From the sequence record PZ452583.1: a stretch of 64,000 nt of DNA; one strand, 5' to 3'. The translations under genes and the position numbers were made by a program. The DNA is from a phage. Of this stretch, positions 37,703-48,122 are shown in pieces; the first letter of the stretch is position 1; each line of letters starts with the position of its first letter. The notes below the pieces were generated by a model. That model did no database searches, was not told where the DNA came from, and was given only the letters and a program-made list of their open reading frames with translations.

Positions 37703-38176
37703 TTATTTGAACGATTTAACGTACTGAATAGAACCCTTACTATTCACAAAGGCAATTTTACCATTTTTATTATACATGGTAGCAGTACGCTGATAACCAT
37801 AGGTTTGTTTACCAGATTGATAACCAACTAATGCAAAATTATCTTCACCCATTTTATTCTGTTTAGCGCGAATGCGTTCATGACCATGTGCCATAAGAAC
37901 CTTAGCATCACCAGTTGCAATGGATCGACGAGTTTTTTCATCTTCAACTGTATTAACAAAGTCGTCAAATGAATCAAATTTAGCATGAGATTTATTATAC
38001 AGTTTTCCATCTACTGCATAATTATATCCTTGTACATCCATCTCAACTTCTGTACCATCATCCAATACAGCAGTGATTTTTTGACCTTTTTTAAATTTCA
38101 AAAGATCAGTAAAAGATTCAGCAATAATTTGAGAATTAATAGCTGCTTCAGTAATAAATTCTTGATATGTTTTCAT
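37703..38176 (-). CDS. Internal-protein-like (capsid-targeting sequence) protein
   Basis: ORF track 157 aa; N-terminus MKTYQEFITEA nearly identical to the T4 IPIII capsid-targeting sequence MKTYQEFIAE, with an I-T-E gp21-type cleavage motif; AAAGGAAA Shine-Dalgarno. Confidence 0.65.
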   Translation of the reverse strand: MKTYQEFITEAAINSQIIAESFTDLLKFKKGQKITAVLDDGTEVEMDVQGYNYAVDGKLYNKSHAKFDSFDDFVNTVEDEKTRRSIATGDAKVLMAHGHERIRAKQNKMGEDNFALVGYQSGKQTYGYQRTATMYNKNGKIAFVNSKGSIQYVKSFK

Positions 38177-41482: not shown

Positions 41483-42076
41483 TTATTTCAGAGAATTAAT
41501 ATATTCCTGAACATCGGCAGAGGTAGTTTCAACCCCAGAAATATTGCCATTAAAGGTTTCAACTCGGGCAAGAGTATCTTCAATATCAACCTTAGTCAGC
41601 GCTGCAATTTCAACTACATCATCAGCAGTACTAATTCCGAGGGCATTCGCAGCACGAGTTTCACGGATATATTCCAATTTAACTGCAAGTTCTTGGCGAG
41701 CATCATCTAACTCAACTACTTTCTTGGCAATTTCAATTCGCATTTCAGCATAACCATCAGCTTTAGTAGTCAACTGCTCAGCTGTTCGACGATATAGTAA
41801 ACCGAGTTTAGCATGCATTGTTACATCTTGACCTTCAGAAAGAAGCTTGCGAATTTCACGCTCTTTTGATTCGGCCTGCTTATTCTTTTCGACAATAAGT
41901 TCACGAATACGCTTTTCTTCATTAATAGATTTAACAGAAGCAGTTTTTAGATCTTTAATCTTATCAAGTAGTTTTGCTGCCGCAGCAGTATACTGTTCTT
42001 CAACAGATAGATTTTTAGCCATAGCAGAACCAAGTTTAGTGCGAATAAACTCAACAATTTTCTTCAGCATGTTCAT
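41483..42076 (-). CDS. Hypothetical coiled-coil protein
   Basis: ORF track 197 aa; long charged heptad-like regions. Confidence 0.55.
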
Positions 42077-42150
42077 AGCATTTCCTTTAGTTAATTAAGG
42101 GTTTTATAATCCGTGGGAGTATTATACTCTACTCCCAAGAGTTTGTAAAC

Positions 42151-42483
42151 TTATTCTTCGTCCAATTCATCAATAAATTTATCGATACTACTATTAATAG
42201 ACTCATCAATGATTAACAAAGCATCATCATCCATAATATTAATATTTTCTAAAGCATCAATATAAGCTTGATTGACTGTAGACCATGCCCTTTGAAAATA
42301 TGGGGCTTCATCATCAGGACTGAACCAACGCACACCTTCAAAGATACGTTTGGCATAATCTAACACCCATTGTACAGGCATGTTTTGAGAGCGTTCATTA
42401 AACTCTTCAAAGTCCTTAGATTCAAAAAGCTCTTCAGGATAATAATTTCTATTACAAAAAGCTTTACTAAAGTTGCGTTTCAT
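42151..42483 (-). CDS. Hypothetical protein
   Basis: ORF track 110 aa. Confidence 0.5.
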   Translation of the reverse strand: MKRNFSKAFCNRNYYPEELFESKDFEEFNERSQNMPVQWVLDYAKRIFEGVRWFSPDDEAPYFQRAWSTVNQAYIDALENINIMDDDALLIIDESINSSIDKFIDELDEE

Positions 42484-42539
42484 AATGTTCTCCTCAAAGT
42501 TATAGGCTCATAATATCTCAATCATGAGCCTGTGTAAAC

Positions 42540-42803
42540 TTATTTCATATTATTGAAATATTCTTCAGCAATTTCATCATTATCATGATAAACTTTAGAA
42601 GACAGTTTAACATAACTTTCAGCAGTGAACATGTTAATCACAACCTTTACAGTATACCACTGACCGTCTTCATTACCCATTACTGCGTAAGTTTCAAACA
42701 TCGGATGATCAGGACCGATAACTTTAATATCATTCACTGTACGACCAAAATCTTCTGAAACACATTTCATAAAGAAGTTGAACAGTTCACCATAATTATC
42801 CAT
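42540..42803 (-). CDS. Hypothetical protein
   Basis: Track ORF 42540..42938 reads through a promoter; supported start ATG 42803..42801 (MDNYGELFNF) after GGAGA. Confidence 0.5.
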   Translation of the reverse strand: MDNYGELFNFFMKCVSEDFGRTVNDIKVIGPDHPMFETYAVMGNEDGQWYTVKVVINMFTAESYVKLSSKVYHDNDEIAEEYFNNMK

Positions 42804-42846
42804 TTCATTCTCCAAGTTGTTTTCTGTATCAGTAGTTGATAGTTGT

Positions 42847-42876
42847 ATAGTACCATGGAAGGACAAGGATGTAAAC
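42847..42876 (-). promoter_or_regulatory. T4 early-promoter-like element
   Basis: Minus strand GTTTAC, 18-nt spacer, TACTAT. Confidence 0.45.
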
Positions 42877-43010
42877 CGTTTTGTGAAAAAAATTTTTAAA
42901 AAGTTTTGGGGAATTCTAGGGCAGGGAGGGGAAATCAAAGGATAGGATAATATATTATAAAGGGTAGAAACTAAATGATGTCTAGAGAGGCCTGGAAAGG
43001 CCTAGATACC

Positions 43011-43038
43011 AAAAAGCCCCAACCTTTCGGCTAGGGCT
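43011..43038 (-). terminator. Intrinsic terminator (long stem, GAAA tetraloop, U5), copy A
   Basis: Minus strand AGCCCUAGCCGAAAGGUUGGGGCUUUUU immediately downstream of the 43046..43519 gene. Confidence 0.6.
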
Positions 43039-43045
43039 AAGAATG

Positions 43046-43519
43046 TTATTTGATTTGTTTAGCAGACCAAATGCGGTCTTTAATAATTTTTTGGATGTCT
43101 TCAACATACTCAAGAGAGTGAGCATGTGGGTTATCTTTGAAACTATAAGCACGAGCTAGCTTTTGGCCTTCAGTTTTGATTACTAAAAGCTCTTTAAGGA
43201 TAGCTTCATATTTGGAGATAATTCCTTTAACAATATTTTTCTCTTGTGCGACTTTAGGATCTGCTTTAGGAGCAGGTTTACCTGAAGCCTTTGCAAAAGC
43301 AGCGCCAGTAGCAACTAAACTTTTCCAGGCCATACTAACAGCATTCCCCGTAAATCCTTCTGCTTTCATGTCGCGAGCAAATTGGAATCGTGATTCATCA
43401 GAAGCATCTTTATAGGAATATTTACCCGCTGCAATGGCTGCTTTTGCGACAGCTTGAATTTCGGTGCTAGACGCTTCATTTAACACCGCTTCATTTAAAA
43501 ATTGAGCATATGATTTCAT
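43046..43519 (-). CDS. Internal-protein-like (capsid-targeting sequence) protein, late-promoter driven
   Basis: ORF track 157 aa; N-terminus MKSYAQFLNEA fits the CTS pattern; TATAAATA late-promoter octamer on the minus strand at plus 43556..43563. Confidence 0.6.
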   Translation of the reverse strand: MKSYAQFLNEAVLNEASSTEIQAVAKAAIAAGKYSYKDASDESRFQFARDMKAEGFTGNAVSMAWKSLVATGAAFAKASGKPAPKADPKVAQEKNIVKGIISKYEAILKELLVIKTEGQKLARAYSFKDNPHAHSLEYVEDIQKIIKDRIWSAKQIK

Positions 43520-43555
43520 CTTATTTCCTGTTTTAATTTGTAGATTTAATATACT

Positions 43556-43563
43556 TATTTATA
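43556..43563 (-). promoter_or_regulatory. Late-promoter octamer TATAAATA upstream of the internal-protein-like gene
   Basis: Plus-strand tatttata at 43556..43563, about 37 nt upstream of the ATG at 43519. Confidence 0.5.
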
Positions 43564-43565
43564 CT

Positions 43566-43593
43566 AAAAAGCCCCAACCTTTCGGCTGGGGCT
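43566..43593 (-). terminator. Intrinsic terminator (long stem, GAAA tetraloop, U5), copy B
   Basis: Minus strand AGCCCCAGCCGAAAGGUUGGGGCUUUUU; near-identical to copy A at 43011..43038. Confidence 0.6.
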
Positions 43594-43904
43594 AAGCCTT
43601 GCGGCAACCTTGTCGGGGTTCCACCTGCTAAGGCAAGTGTTTGTACGAAACGCCGGGATTCGAACCCGGTTATCAAGCAGTTGACGCTACTCAATATTTT
43701 TAAAAGGCCATATCTCGACCATATCCGAACGTTCCGTCAAAAACGCTACTCGGCTTACGGCAAAGATATTTCCTCGAATCGATAATTCGGTGCGCCGTTT
43801 CTGCTGTGATATAAGGGGACATTAACAAAACATAAAGATTTATTAATGCCAGTCCTTAAACAGGGAACATCAGTCCGACGACTTACCGGTAGCGACCCGG
43901 TTTC
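43594..43904 (-). ncRNA. Candidate structured non-coding RNA region downstream of the tRNA operon (contains a tRNA-like T-arm)
   Basis: About 310 nt with no ORF of 60 aa or more on either strand, between the 43905..44255 gene and terminator copy B; minus strand contains CCGGGUUCGAAUCCCGG (plus 43651..43667). No acceptor stem or CCA found, so not a canonical tRNA. Confidence 0.25.
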
Positions 43905-44255
43905 TTAATATTCTTTTAAAGCATCAATCTGTTCACGGCGTTTACGCCATAAATCAATTGCTTCATACGCAGATTCAGCATTTCGAATTAGCCGGCATTT
44001 ATGTAAAGACTTATGATTTTGATATTGTGTAGATAATGGAATTGTATCTAAAAGGTCTTTACGATCAAAGTATTCGTAACCATCTAAACCAAATGAACGA
44101 TTTTTGAGAAATTGCCAATGGCCAAATTCATTTTCAACATAAACATAATCTGCATGCTGATAAAGTAAATTAATTACACGTTCAGAAATAACAGTATCAT
44201 TATGATTAAAATAGAATGTTAAATCATGAACTACTAAATAAACATTACCTTTCAT
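43905..44255 (-). CDS. Hypothetical protein
   Basis: ORF track 116 aa; ATG 44255 preceded by GAGGAAAA, 18 nt downstream of tRNA-Arg. Confidence 0.55.
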   Translation of the reverse strand: MKGNVYLVVHDLTFYFNHNDTVISERVINLLYQHADYVYVENEFGHWQFLKNRSFGLDGYEYFDRKDLLDTIPLSTQYQNHKSLHKCRLIRNAESAYEAIDLWRKRREQIDALKEY

Positions 44256-44273
44256 ATTTTCCTCACTTATAAT

Positions 44274-44349
44274 TGGTCGAGGCAGTAGGGATCGAACCTA
44301 CGACCTAGGACTTAGAAGGTCCTTGCTCTTCCTTCTGAGCTATGCCCCG
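44274..44349 (-). tRNA. tRNA-Arg (anticodon UCU)
   Basis: Hand-folded cloverleaf from reverse complement: T-arm GUAGG-UUCGAUC-CCUAC, anticodon loop CUUCUAA, encoded CCA. Confidence 0.8.
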
Positions 44350-44353
44350 TAAT

Positions 44354-44429
44354 TGGGGTGACCGATGGGAGTCGAACCCATGACTACGAGAATCACAATC
44401 TCGAGTTCTACCAACTGAACTACGGCCAC
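44354..44429 (-). tRNA. tRNA-His (anticodon GUG)
   Basis: Hand-folded: acceptor GUGGCCG/CGGUCAC, D-stem GUUC/GAAC, anticodon stem CGAGA/UCUCG with loop UUGUGAU, T-arm AUGGG-UUCGACU-CCCAU, discriminator C, CCA; no encoded G-1. Confidence 0.65.
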
Positions 44430-44543
44430 ATTAATATCTACTCCAACAATCATGATGTCTTCACACGAAATTAAGAGAAGAGTGATCAGTTAAACCCTTA
44501 TAATCGCGTCAAGTAGATATTAATGTGACAGTTGTCACAAATT

Positions 44544-44618
44544 TGGCGGACGTGATAGGATTCGAACCTATAACCAATCGCTTAACAGGCGATCGCTCTG
44601 CCATTGAGCTACACATCC
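44544..44618 (-). tRNA. tRNA-Asn (anticodon GUU)
   Basis: Hand-folded: acceptor GGAUGUG/CACGUCC, anticodon stem AUCGC/GCGAU with loop CUGUUAA, T-loop UUCGAAU, CCA. Confidence 0.7.
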
Positions 44619-44622
44619 AAAT

Positions 44623-44709
44623 TGGTGGGGAGTGGTGGAGTCGAACCACCCGAGTCGCAATGACAATGAATTTACAGTCCACACCGCTACCTCTACGGGA
44701 TAACTCCCC
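44623..44709 (-). tRNA. tRNA-Tyr (anticodon GUA), type II with long variable arm
   Basis: Hand-folded: acceptor GGGGAGU/ACUCCCC, anticodon loop CUGUAAA, variable arm hairpin, T-arm GGUGG-UUCGACU-CCACC, CCA; anticodon stem has two G-U pairs. Confidence 0.6.
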
Positions 44710-44721
44710 TAATTCATAATT

Positions 44722-44796
44722 TGGTGGCCCTGGGTGGAATTGAACCACCATCTGGCGATTATGAGTCGCTTGCTTGAACCTTCCAGCTACAGGGCC
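44722..44796 (-). tRNA. tRNA with CAU anticodon (Ile by analogy to T4 tRNA-Ile; Met by anticodon alone)
   Basis: Hand-folded: acceptor GGCCCUG/CAGGGCC, anticodon loop CUCAUAA, T-arm GGUGG-UUCAAUU-CCACC, CCA. Confidence 0.7.
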
Positions 44797-44797
44797 T

Positions 44798-44873
44798 TGG
44801 TGCTGATTGACGGAATCGAACCGCCGACCTTCTCATTACAAGTGAGTTGCTCTACCTACTGAGCTAAATCAGC
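44798..44873 (-). tRNA. tRNA-Thr (anticodon UGU)
   Basis: Hand-folded: acceptor GCUGAUU/AAUCAGC, D-stem GCUC/GAGC, anticodon loop CUUGUAA, T-loop UUCGAUU, CCA. Confidence 0.75.
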
Positions 44874-44878
44874 AAAAC

Positions 44879-44968
44879 TGGCGGAGGCGATAGGATTTGA
44901 ACCTATGAGTCGCCGGAGCGACTGCCGGTTTTCAAGACCGGTGCATTAAACCACTCTGCCACGCCTCC
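44879..44968 (-). tRNA. tRNA-Ser (anticodon UGA), type II
   Basis: Hand-folded: acceptor GGAGGCG/CGCCUCC, anticodon stem CCGGU/ACCGG with loop CUUGAAA, long variable arm, T-loop UUCAAAU, CCA. Confidence 0.75.
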
Positions 44969-44970
44969 AG

Positions 44971-45044
44971 TCTCCATACAAGGATTTGAACCTTGGACCT
45001 CCTGATCCCAAATCAGGCGCTCTACCAAACTGAGCTACACGGAG
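44971..45044 (-). tRNA. tRNA-Pro (anticodon UGG), CCA not encoded
   Basis: Hand-folded: anticodon stem CCUGA/UCAGG with loop UUUGGGA, T-arm CAAGG-UUCAAAU-CCUUG; 3' end abuts tRNA-Ser (Pro-Ser dimeric arrangement as in T4). Confidence 0.75.
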
Positions 45045-45054
45045 TAAATTAAAT

Positions 45055-45128
<74 letters not shown>

Positions 45129-45133
45129 AAATT

Positions 45134-45220
45134 TGGTGCGAGAAGTGGGACTCGAACCCACAAGGAAATCATTCCGCAGCATTTTAAGTGCTGTGCCTTT
45201 ACCAATTTGACCATTCTCGC
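45134..45220 (-). tRNA. tRNA-Leu (anticodon UAA), type II
   Basis: Hand-folded: acceptor GCGAGAA/UUCUCGC, anticodon stem CAGCA/UGCUG with loop CUUAAAA, long variable arm, T-arm GUGGG-UUCGAGU-CCCAC, CCA. Confidence 0.75.
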
Positions 45221-45226
45221 GTTATA

Positions 45227-45835
45227 TTATTTATTACGTGAAAAAGACTGTTCTATCAATTCTGGACACTTTCGTTCTATCCATTTTCTAGCTTTTTGTG
45301 GGCTTATACCTATTATTTTAGCAGCTTTACTAACCCATCCAAATTTAGAATAATCGATTTTAACTAATTCTTCGTAAATTTCATTAGTTAAAATCTTTTC
45401 ATTAATATTTACCAGTAAATGATATAATTTGTTATCATTAGCAATTTTAATGAATCTTTTATAGTTTCCGCCTTTACTTAAACCTAATGAAGTAATTGCA
45501 GATGATATAGTAGCCGAATTTAATAATGCGTTTAAAATTTCTTCATCACTAACATTATAACGCTTTTTATTATTTTTAATATTTTTACCAGCAAAAGTAT
45601 CAGTTTGCGAATGACAGTTTGGACATAATAATCTTAAATTTGATTTAAGATGATTTTTGTTATTTCCATCAATATGGTCTAATTGCAGAACAATATGCTT
45701 ATTTTGCCATTTTGAAATTTTACAAATTGCACACTCATATGGAAAAATATTTTCTTTTATTATTTTGTCTTTCAGCTTTCCTGTACTAAAATTTGGATGT
45801 TTTCCTTCAAAAATTTCAGCTAATTTAGTATCCAT
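45227..45835 (-). CDS. HNH homing-endonuclease-like protein (free-standing, adjacent to tRNA array)
   Basis: Track ORF 45227..45859 (TTG); supported start ATG 45835..45833 (MDTKLAEIF); HNH core LDHIDGNNKNHLKSNLRLLCPNCH with paired Cys (CAIC...CPNC). Confidence 0.7.
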   Translation of the reverse strand: MDTKLAEIFEGKHPNFSTGKLKDKIIKENIFPYECAICKISKWQNKHIVLQLDHIDGNNKNHLKSNLRLLCPNCHSQTDTFAGKNIKNNKKRYNVSDEEILNALLNSATISSAITSLGLSKGGNYKRFIKIANDNKLYHLLVNINEKILTNEIYEELVKIDYSKFGWVSKAAKIIGISPQKARKWIERKCPELIEQSFSRNK

Positions 45836-45934
45836 AATATGATTCCCAATTATTAACAAAGGCTCTCAAATAAGAACCCTTGATGATAGAGGGTATTAAT
45901 CAGTGCGGTATGAGTTAATAATAACAAATAATTC

Positions 45935-46450
45935 TTAAAGCAAATCAACCATTTTAACAGTCGGCAAAACAATTTCTTCTTCGATATAAGCAAATTCTAC
46001 ATGTTCAACTACACGCAAGAAATCATATTCATAGTATTCAGAAGCATGACCAAGAATATCAATGAGGCCTTCAGATATCTTATTACCATTCACAAAGAAT
46101 AAATCAAATACACGTTCTTCATCTTCTTCGGATTTATTACCAAGGTCAACTTCTATATCAAAGACCTTTTTAATGAATTCTGGATAAAGTTGGTCTGAGA
46201 ACAGTCCTTCAACCAAATATTCATATATAAAAAGCTCTTGCTCGCTGAACAACCCATTACCACAATAACGGTCAGCTTTAGTGCTAGAATGACGACTCTT
46301 AAACTTCTTCAAAAGATATTTAAATTGTTGGAGCTCATGCTCTTCTACGCCAAACAGTGTTTTGGTTTTATAGTTATCACCATCATTTTCCCAGGTAGTG
46401 ACATCAATTACGTAACCCTTAGGAATTGTGCTGCCTAAACGAATATTCAT
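45935..46450 (-). CDS. Hypothetical protein
   Basis: ORF track 171 aa. Confidence 0.55.
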   Translation of the reverse strand: MNIRLGSTIPKGYVIDVTTWENDGDNYKTKTLFGVEEHELQQFKYLLKKFKSRHSSTKADRYCGNGLFSEQELFIYEYLVEGLFSDQLYPEFIKKVFDIEVDLGNKSEEDEERVFDLFFVNGNKISEGLIDILGHASEYYEYDFLRVVEHVEFAYIEEEIVLPTVKMVDLL

Positions 46451-47864: not shown

Positions 47865-48122
47865 TTATTTTAAATCTTCTAATCGTTTCTTCATCTTAGA
47901 ACCATTTTTAGCGATTTCTCCTGCGTCAGAGCATAATGCTAAAAGTGCTTTAACTTTAGTTTGGTCTCCTTTAAAAGACGAAGGATCGACTGCAGCAGCA
48001 AGTTCTTTAATACGAGAGAAAAGACGCTCAGCTTCAGCTAAAGCCATTCCAAGCTTTACTTCCATACCATGAGAAGATTCAGTGATAATAGTTTCTGTAG
48101 CAAACTCTTTATAAGTTTTCAT
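47865..48122 (-). CDS. Internal-protein-like (capsid-targeting sequence) protein at the T4 ipI position
   Basis: ORF track 85 aa; N-terminus MKTYKEFATETIITE fits the CTS pattern; immediately downstream (in transcription) of 57B as ipI is in T4. Confidence 0.6.
   Translation of the reverse strand: MKTYKEFATETIITESSHGMEVKLGMALAEAERLFSRIKELAAAVDPSSFKGDQTKVKALLALCSDAGEIAKNGSKMKKRLEDLK

Follow-up and report, generated by a model that had tools for sequence, protein, structure and literature searches.

The DNA analysed here is a stretch of 64,000 nucleotides (nt) from a phage (sequence record PZ452583.1; one strand, 5' to 3'), referred to below as the window. It belongs to Tequatrovirus, with best matches to TadeuszReichstein, SHBML-50-1, RB51 and RB68 (97-98.6% identity), and its region 42500-44300 matches 776 phage records. 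On the minus strand, between rnaC at the end of the transfer RNA (tRNA) cluster and the early gene e.8, lies an open reading frame (ORF; 43046..43519) whose product opens with a leader resembling that of the T4 internal proteins (IPs). The ORF is preceded by a late-promoter octamer and stands between two near-identical terminator hairpins, and by comparison with T4 it is part of a single 555-bp unit. We consider it fairly probable that this unit is an autonomous late module whose IP-like product is loaded via the leader and acts, most plausibly, against host defence. The features of the locus, in the order of transcription, are the following.

43561..43596 (minus): direct repeat copy 1, with terminator T1 of the tRNA/rnaC operon (stem 43570-43593, GAAA loop, U5 43565-43569); the sole copy in T4
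43556..43563 (minus): TATAAATA, a T4-type late-promoter -10 octamer that starts 2 nt past the U-run of T1, with 36 nt between octamer and ATG
43524..43529 (minus): Shine-Dalgarno-like AGGAAA, 4 nt before the ATG, as read from the sequence
43490..43519 (minus): candidate capsid-targeting sequence MKSYAQFLNE (codons 1-10), ending in the prohead-protease motif L-x-E, from comparison with T4 IPs, Ip4 and Ip5
43472..43498 (minus): 12-nt repeat present twice with a 15-bp period, TTAAATGAAGCG-GTG-TTAAATGAAGCG on the coding strand, duplicating L-N-E-A (second copy residues 13-16)
43046..43519 (minus): coding sequence of 157 amino acids (aa) comprising the leader, a four-helix N-domain, a PAPKADPK linker and a C-terminal helical hairpin (PHROG 2280, substitution rates, predicted fold)
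43006..43041 (minus): direct repeat copy 2, with terminator T2 of the cassette (stem 43015-43038, GAAA loop, U5 43010-43014)

An earlier sequence-only reading had proposed the ORF with its IP-like leader, the upstream octamer and the two matching hairpins. All three were borne out: the leader is conserved in distant homologues, the octamer keeps its placement in homologous loci, and the hairpins lie in repeats that share their sequence beyond the stem, as described below.

A small family under purifying selection

Translation of the ORF gives a protein starting MKSYAQFLNEAVLNEA. Against its homologues, the ratio of non-synonymous to synonymous substitution rates (dN/dS) was 0.02-0.10 at dS values of 0.13 to 2.0. 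This strong purifying selection identifies ORF 43046..43519 as a real gene under coding selection. The family is small: a set of 5.8 billion sequences yielded 14 clusters at 90% identity, and one of 1.84 billion proteins yielded 13 representatives at 50% identity. PHROGs assigns the product to phrog_2280, a family of unknown function, and sequence-profile searches of Pfam, NCBIfam and the PDB with the protein returned nothing above noise.

AlphaFold2 predicted an all-helical protein (average predicted local distance difference test score, pLDDT, 75.5). In this model a four-helix N-domain (residues 18-71), which is conserved in all homologues, is joined through a disordered Lys/Ala/Pro linker to a long C-terminal helical hairpin (residues 88-155). 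The character of the linker is kept across homologues (PAPKADPK, AKPKPAKAEPKK, AAPKPAPAKPAPTPAK). Klebsiella and Yersinia homologues have unrelated sequence in place of the C-terminal half. Fold searches with the predicted model recovered self-matches and generic helical hairpins only; the profile and structure searches that the sequence-only reading had suggested were uninformative. The computed mature protein has a mass of about 15.5-16 kDa and an isoelectric point (pI) of 9.5. A literature search found no mention of RB32ORF132c or its synonyms, and the ORF's sequence was absent from the supplements of the 2025 screen.

The leader resembles those of T-even internal proteins

The first ten residues of the product, MKSYAQFLNE, match the MKTYQEFIAE leader at five positions (M1, K2, Y4, F7 and E10), and S3, Q6 and L8 are conservative replacements. 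The N-termini that we compared are listed below.

T4 IPII: MKTYQEFIAE-ARV
T4 IPIII: MKTYQEFIAE-ASV
Window Ip4, 37703..38176 (minus): MKTYQEFITE-AAI
Window Ip5, 47865..48122 (minus): MKTYKEFATE-TII
Second gene at the locus in Yersinia phage fPS-90: MKTYAEFLTE-AAK
ORF 43046..43519: MKSYAQFLNE-AVLNE-ASS

Of the 499 frames in the window that start with Met and reach at least 50 aa, 3 carry the leader motif ^M..[YF].[EQD]F..E, where 0.024 would be expected. Besides ORF 43046..43519, its carriers are Ip4 and Ip5 (named after the RB68 annotation), which PHROGs files as 'internal virion/head protein'. The leaders of the Mosigvirus, Jiaodavirus and Muldoonvirus homologues conform to x-x-x-[Y/F]-x-[E/Q/D]-F-[L/V]-x-E, and distant family members all have the motif (MLKFNEFLAEG, MINFSDFLNEG, MKSFSSFLNEG, MLEYSEFLKE, MKFKEFLAE). 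Even where the DNA identity to homologues has fallen to 59%, the leader is kept at the amino-acid level.

L-x-E is the cleavage consensus of the T4 prohead protease (gp21). It is found twice in the ORF, as L8-N-E10 and L13-N-E15, the second occurrence arising from the tandem duplication with its 15-bp period. The duplication is absent from the homologues P0004, P0005 and P0011, which have a single candidate protease site.

Two Ip loci have been described (PMC12373910). They lie at 57B-trna.4 and denV-e, and the annotation of phage PST, made by IP specialists, names IpIII-IpVI at these two loci only. ORF 43046..43519 is in neither. The sequence-only reading had assigned it to a locus known to be hypervariable in T-even phages; the rnaC-e.8 gap in which it sits is not one of those known to vary in this way for IP genes. 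T4 IPI, IPII and IPIII, as well as Ip4 and Ip5 of the window, belong to PHROGs other than phrog_2280. Ip4 abuts denV, where T4's ipII and ipIII are absent; Ip5 occupies the ipI position and, as is the case for T4 ipI, has one copy of an early-promoter block (tttcacaaagttgtttaca...gtgatactatta) on either side.

A homologue was detected in a virion preparation

The closely related gene g140 of Yersinia phage fD1 is a homologue of ORF 43046..43519, with 96% identity in nucleotides. Its product is listed as particle-associated at the strict threshold in liquid chromatography-tandem mass spectrometry (LC-MS/MS) of purified virions, and the 'head proteins' g129 and g146 of the fD1 IP loci were likewise detected at that threshold (PMC8309999 Table S3). 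No product was detected for g139 (e.8) or g138, the two genes that come next after g140 in the direction of transcription (PMC8309999 Table S3).

Late-promoter octamer and duplicated terminators

The placement of TATAAATA is conserved among homologous loci. In the full-length (157-aa) Tequatrovirus copies examined the exact octamer lies 44-48 nt before the ATG, and in a divergent 153-aa homologue 36 nt before it. The octamer also occurs in the Jiaodavirus and Muldoonvirus loci, with variants matching at 7/8 positions in Mosigvirus and in one metagenomic relative. It is through this octamer that the gp55-modified polymerase recognises T4 late promoters.

The two direct repeats are 36 nt each, 94% identical and 555 bp apart; their 31-nt core occurs exactly twice in the 64 kb and was not recovered in any of 100 shuffles. 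In the minus-strand transcript, folding of either repeat gives a 10-bp stem that is capped by a GAAA loop and trailed by U5, at energies of -20.6 kcal/mol for T1 (z -3.8) and -18.3 kcal/mol for T2 (z -4.0). Identity between the copies reaches past the stem into flanks that do not pair, TTAG upstream and TTTTT[A/G]GTAT downstream. Across genomes, the stem variants CCGACC, CCAGCC, CTAGCC and CCTTCC are differently combined in the upstream and downstream copies, and this reassortment argues for ongoing recombination within the repeats, not for strict homogenisation. Concerted evolution of the terminator copies was considered and rejected: the pairs match in the window, fPS-90 and PhAPEC2, but the two copies carry different stem variants in RB68 and in locus L037.

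The sequence next to the terminators also recurs. GGTATCTA, followed by [A/G]G, stands directly after the terminator U-run in T4, the window, the second module of fPS-90 and a distant metagenomic relative; its sites are 43001-43010 (minus strand) in the window, ~4821-4830 in L003, ~685-695 and ~1325-1335 in L041, and ~2743-2752 in L004. Both terminators of the metagenomic relative precede GGTATCTA, and the upstream copy of the window reads AGTATAAATA instead. The motif may represent either a recombination junction or a signal for processing. A near-identical GAAA-tetraloop terminator (GCCCCGGCCGAAAGGTTGGGGCTTTTT) was seen in unrelated small phage contigs, in the context GTGTGAAATT...CTTTTT (L005, L006, L009-L013 and others; viral contigs of about 5-42 kb, several of about 38 kb), where it probably reflects convergence on a strong terminator design.

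The unit is missing from T4 and other close relatives

The flanks of the cassette were compared with T4 by BLAST mapping and direct reading, and the window coordinates of T4 features come from BLAST mapping. The flanking features are these.

43789..43905: rnaD, T4 feature mapped by BLAST
43644..43782 (minus): rnaC (species 1 stable RNA), last gene of the tRNA cluster, 97.8% identical to T4 rnaC over all 139 nt and annotated in RB68
43597..43643 (minus): 3' trailer of the rnaC/tRNA transcript ahead of T1, collinear with T4, with small hairpins predicted
42847..42875 (minus): early-type promoter of e.8, TTTACA-17-TACTAT, a block conserved in T4
42540..42803 (minus): e.8, first conserved gene downstream of the cassette, 96.2% identical to T4 e.8 over 264 nt and annotated in RB68

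In T4 (NC_000866), rnaC and its 3' trailer are followed by one terminator copy and then directly by GGTATCTAAGCCTTTCCAG... toward the e.8 early promoter, with no gene in between. The window is collinear with T4 along the left flank up to T1 and along the right flank from T2 onward, so that it equals T4 plus one 555-bp unit consisting of [A/G]GTATAAATA..., the ORF and terminator copy 2. Described the other way round, T4 is what a crossover within the 36-nt repeat would produce, leaving a single chimeric copy. Since T4 keeps its single terminator after rnaC, the upstream 'cassette terminator' is the one that ends the tRNA/rnaC operon. The synteny comparison across T-even genomes that had been suggested therefore revealed a real break, with one terminator copy and no gene in T4, and it divides the earlier picture of bracketing terminators: the copies are homologous and sit at that break, while the upstream one belongs to the operon.

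A 156-nt probe spanning the T4 junction matched 671 records, in 231 of which one place covered at least 80% of the probe; the kinds of match were judged from evenly sampled rows. Contiguous matches mark the empty site and were seen in T4, RB5, ACG-C40 and GEP001, and two-piece matches spanning about 711-715 bp mark the arrangement with one module. In PST, no gene is annotated from tRNA-Arg to e.8, and the 540-nt gap is too short for one. The gene is thus patchy among close relatives, being absent in T4, PST, RB5, ACG-C40 and GEP001 and present in 495 records, and its absence from T4, PST, RB5 and ACG-C40 indicates that it is dispensable. A foreign origin judged by composition was tried and set aside, as the guanine-cytosine content (~0.40) is not distinctive against that of the protein-coding flanks (~0.29-0.41).

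The same site is occupied in other genera

The module interior was found at one place per record in the 495 phage records that hold it. The gene is annotated as hypothetical and is not labelled as an IP in any record examined. The rnaC-e.8 site is polymorphic in the number of modules, with none in T4, one in the window and two in fPS-90 and PhAPEC2. In these last two, Yersinia phage fPS-90 and Mosigvirus PhAPEC2, the ORF homologue stands between two terminator copies and is followed by a second gene, which encodes 187 aa starting MKTYAEFLTEAAKL and has its own, different terminator; there ...CTTTTT is again joined to GGTATCTAGG. This second gene occurs in 165 phage records (fPS-90 g135c, L004 2147-2710; PhAPEC2_133, L039 3026-3589).

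BLASTP and hhalign aligned the protein of the second module with the ORF product over residues 1-11 only, with 8/11 identical. For Ip1-3, no homology was reported except in the N-terminal leader that directs packaging (PMC12373910). The two module proteins thus share the property that is the hallmark of Ip1-3 (PMC12373910). The two module proteins may be paralogues, as both fall in phrog_2280, yet BLASTP and hhalign, including comparisons via P0011 and P0017, align only the leader.

More distant genera have the homologue in corresponding surroundings. In the Klebsiella Jiaodavirus phiKp_22, the tRNAs are followed by a terminator, AGTATAAATA, the homologue (MKFKEFLAEASS...), a different terminator and an early promoter. 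In the Muldoonvirus Cronobacter phage VP8, the order is terminator, GGTATAAATA, a 72-aa ORF (MKSFTEFLTES), the overlapping homologue (MKSFSSFLNEG...) and a terminator. A metagenomic relative has the same layout ahead of an MDN... gene resembling e.8. To the sequence-only reading, the paired terminators looked like the footprint of cassette gain or exchange. That Mosigvirus, Jiaodavirus and Muldoonvirus have homologues in the same position argues instead against a recent gain and makes loss the more likely origin of the T4 state. Judged by sequence comparison, the gene is an old resident of the rnaC-e.8 position in several Straboviridae genera, and the T4 arrangement more likely arose when one terminator copy recombined with the other and the gene was precisely lost.

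A T4-like metagenomic contig (L034 12438-13060) carries the rnaC terminator, TATAAATA and a divergent leader-bearing gene (MYTVNEFLAETEIITEA...) with the N-domain, an AKP linker and a helical C-terminus; the gene is broken in an A-run by a frameshift or a sequencing error.

Neighbouring genes of the tRNA region

On the minus strand of RB68 the gene order is 57B, Ip5, trna.4, trna.3, trna.2, the tRNA cluster, a hypothetical ORF, rnaD and rnaC, followed by RB68_138 (the gene studied here, annotated 'hypothetical protein'), e.8 through e.2, nudE (e.1) and e. The window has 10 tRNA genes at 44274..45220, and an Rfam scan of 42000-46000 detected tRNAs only, with no family for rnaC, rnaD or the terminator. 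Between tRNA-Arg and rnaD lies a 116-aa ORF (43905..44255, minus strand) with no Pfam family, hypothetical in RB68 and R5505, whose stop overlaps the first base of the rnaD homology. The otherwise tight tRNA array is interrupted by a 114-nt gap between tRNA-His and tRNA-Asn (44430-44543), which is also present in R5505. The position that tRNA-Gln holds in RB68, R5505, T4 and PST is occupied by a 210-aa ORF (45227..45859, minus strand; region 45222-45841) with a weak, sub-threshold match to an HNH endonuclease. Relative to R5505, ~620 bp replace tRNA-Gln except for about its first 7 nt, and tRNA-Gln was not found anywhere in the 64-kb window.

A proposed late module and its alternatives

The reading that we favour builds on the anatomy of the unit, the coding selection on its gene, the synteny break, the polymorphism of the locus, the conservation of the leader and the presence of a homologue in a virion preparation. 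Late in infection, phage late RNA polymerase would start a few bases after TATAAATA and produce a monocistronic mRNA of ~0.55 kb that ends at T2. T1 would stop the tRNA/rnaC transcripts and T2 the module transcript before the early promoter of e.8, so that the module would be insulated on both sides. Late transcription would supply the protein during prohead assembly, when the leader MKSYAQFLNE may carry it into the prohead core and the prohead protease may remove the leader after Glu10 and/or Glu15. The basic mature protein would stay in the head, enter the next cell with the DNA and act there before any phage gene expression, most plausibly against host defence. T2 being a copy of T1, the module could be deleted precisely by homologous recombination between the copies, which would give the T4 arrangement; modules also stack head to tail, as the pairs in fPS-90 and PhAPEC2 show. 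The description that suits the gene best is that of a T-even IP-class member at a third locus, apparently undescribed.

An anti-defence role is favoured by analogy with Ip1-3, all of which are specific GmrSD inhibitors. The sequence-only reading had likewise considered an anti-restriction role plausible; this is pure analogy, and no sequence or fold evidence bears on the role. A broader proposition, offered tentatively and as a possibility, is that rnaC-e.8 represents a third IP locus with stackable late modules, encoding a packaged and co-injected family whose defence target differs from the GmrSD variants of Ip1-3. The family would in that case have been missed because T4 deleted it.

Several points weigh against the favoured reading. 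Packaging through the leader, cleavage and injection, like the use of the promoter and the target, are steps that we infer. The particle-associated set of fD1 comprises 113-137 of 277 proteins and includes DenV, lysozyme e, NudE and dNMP kinase (PMC8309999). With a preparation that is not clean, the detection of g140 is weak evidence, supportive and not decisive, for the earlier proposal of a candidate virion-packaged product. The octamer TATAAATA occurs 11 times in the window against 10.4 expected; at this chance frequency in an AT-rich sequence, its value rests on the conserved placement. T4 ip genes have early-type promoter blocks upstream, not TATAAATA, so that regulation here differs from that of the reference IPs. 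In addition, the conservation of the gene (dN/dS <=0.1, with the N-domain conserved across genera) is unusual for an arms-race effector, and sequence and fold searches gave no link to IPI*, Ip2, Ip3 or any anti-defence protein.

Some of these observations would suit a product that is packaged and processed like an IP and yet has a structural or DNA-associated role, in charge neutralisation, DNA organisation or end protection. The protein is basic (pI 9.5), its homologues retain the Lys/Ala/Pro-rich linker, and it is strongly conserved under purifying selection at the same locus in four genera, unlike the patchy and unrelated classical IPs; the C-terminal helical hairpin gives generic matches only. 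Set against this are the dispensability of the gene, missing from T4, PST, RB5 and ACG-C40, the finding that all three characterised T4 IPs are specific defence inhibitors (PMC12373910), and the swapping of the C-terminal half between genera, which suggests adaptation. We regard a structural or DNA-associated role of this kind as rather unlikely; the basic charge, the AKP-type linker and the strong conservation keep a DNA-associated function in play.

Two further explanations each dispute one part of the module. The protein might be a late product that is not packaged, its leader likeness stemming from a shared 5' recombination or translation-initiation block and not from capsid targeting. The contamination of the fD1 proteome with non-virion proteins and the match of only 5/10 residues to MKTYQEFIAE would allow this, but the leader is kept at the amino-acid level despite DNA divergence to 59% identity, the other motif carriers in the window are Ip4 and Ip5 only, late timing suits prohead assembly, and fD1 g140 was detected while the downstream g139 (e.8) and g138 were not. 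We consider the absence of packaging distinctly unlikely. It is very improbable, in our view, that the terminator copies are independent, convergent strong terminators with no part in gene gain or loss. Near-identical GAAA stems do occur in unrelated viral contigs of about 38 kb, and the flanking terminators of Jiaodavirus and Muldoonvirus differ in sequence. Convergence would, however, have to account for identity (94%) across 36 nt that include non-pairing flanks, for an empty site in T4 that is exactly the single chimeric copy expected from recombination, and for stem variants reassorted between upstream and downstream copies among genomes.

Comparison with known systems

The closest parallel is with the T-even IPs, of which Ip4-Ip13 were reportedly treated by Repoila et al. 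in 1994. Like them, the ORF product has a short MKTYQEFIAE-type leader ending in L/I-x-E and a body unrelated to other IPs. It is small, basic, non-essential and patchy among close relatives, it has repeated regulatory DNA at its flanks, and its homologue fD1 g140 was detected in a virion preparation. It differs in its location at a third site, rnaC-e.8, and in its TATAAATA late promoter, where T4 ipI, ipII and ipIII have early-type promoter blocks. Its flanking repeat is a terminator, whereas the repeat found on both sides of T4 ipI is an early-promoter block, and the family is far more conserved across genera than the classical IPs.

GmrSD type IV restriction enzymes are the targets of T4 Ip1, Ip2 and Ip3, each of which inhibits a different one (PMC12373910; 2025). 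The ORF product shares with these inhibitors the leader and the presumed delivery route only, and shows no sequence or predicted-fold similarity to them. Because Ip1-3 disarm GmrSD enzymes, every further leader-bearing protein becomes a candidate anti-defence effector with a known delivery route. About 500 T-even-like phages with sequenced genomes carry the present gene, and many of these are candidates for therapy; the model phage T4 lacks it and is thus a natural knockout.

As an autonomous promoter-ORF-terminator unit between conserved genes, present in some relatives and absent in others, the 555-bp unit recalls the morons of lambdoid phages, which Hendrix and Juhala are said to have described as self-contained promoter-ORF-terminator inserts between conserved transcription units. 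It differs in belonging to a virulent phage and in using a phage late promoter in place of a host promoter active in lysogens, and its product probably serves the phage particle, not the lysogen.

The arrangement of the repeats also resembles the promoter-early stem-loop (PeSL) cassettes of T4-type phages (Arbiol et al. 2010; Comeau et al. 2014), in which flanking repeats mediate ORF excision and insertion (PMC2839356, PMC4122927) and mini-circles have been shown experimentally by inverse PCR (PMC2839356). In both cases tandem copies of a regulatory element bracket a variable ORF, the ORF-less relative keeps one chimeric copy, and homologous recombination with mini-circle excision and insertion is the proposed route. 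The composite of stem-loop, sigma-70-like early promoter, Shine-Dalgarno sequence and ATG that characterises PeSLs is not present here. The repeat is a bare terminator, copy 1 of which precedes the late promoter TATAAATA in the window and copy 2 of which lies ~135 nt before the early promoter of e.8. The rnaC-e.8 locus offers a clean natural case in which a module is lost between repeated terminators, and extends to them the PeSL idea of modular shuffling.

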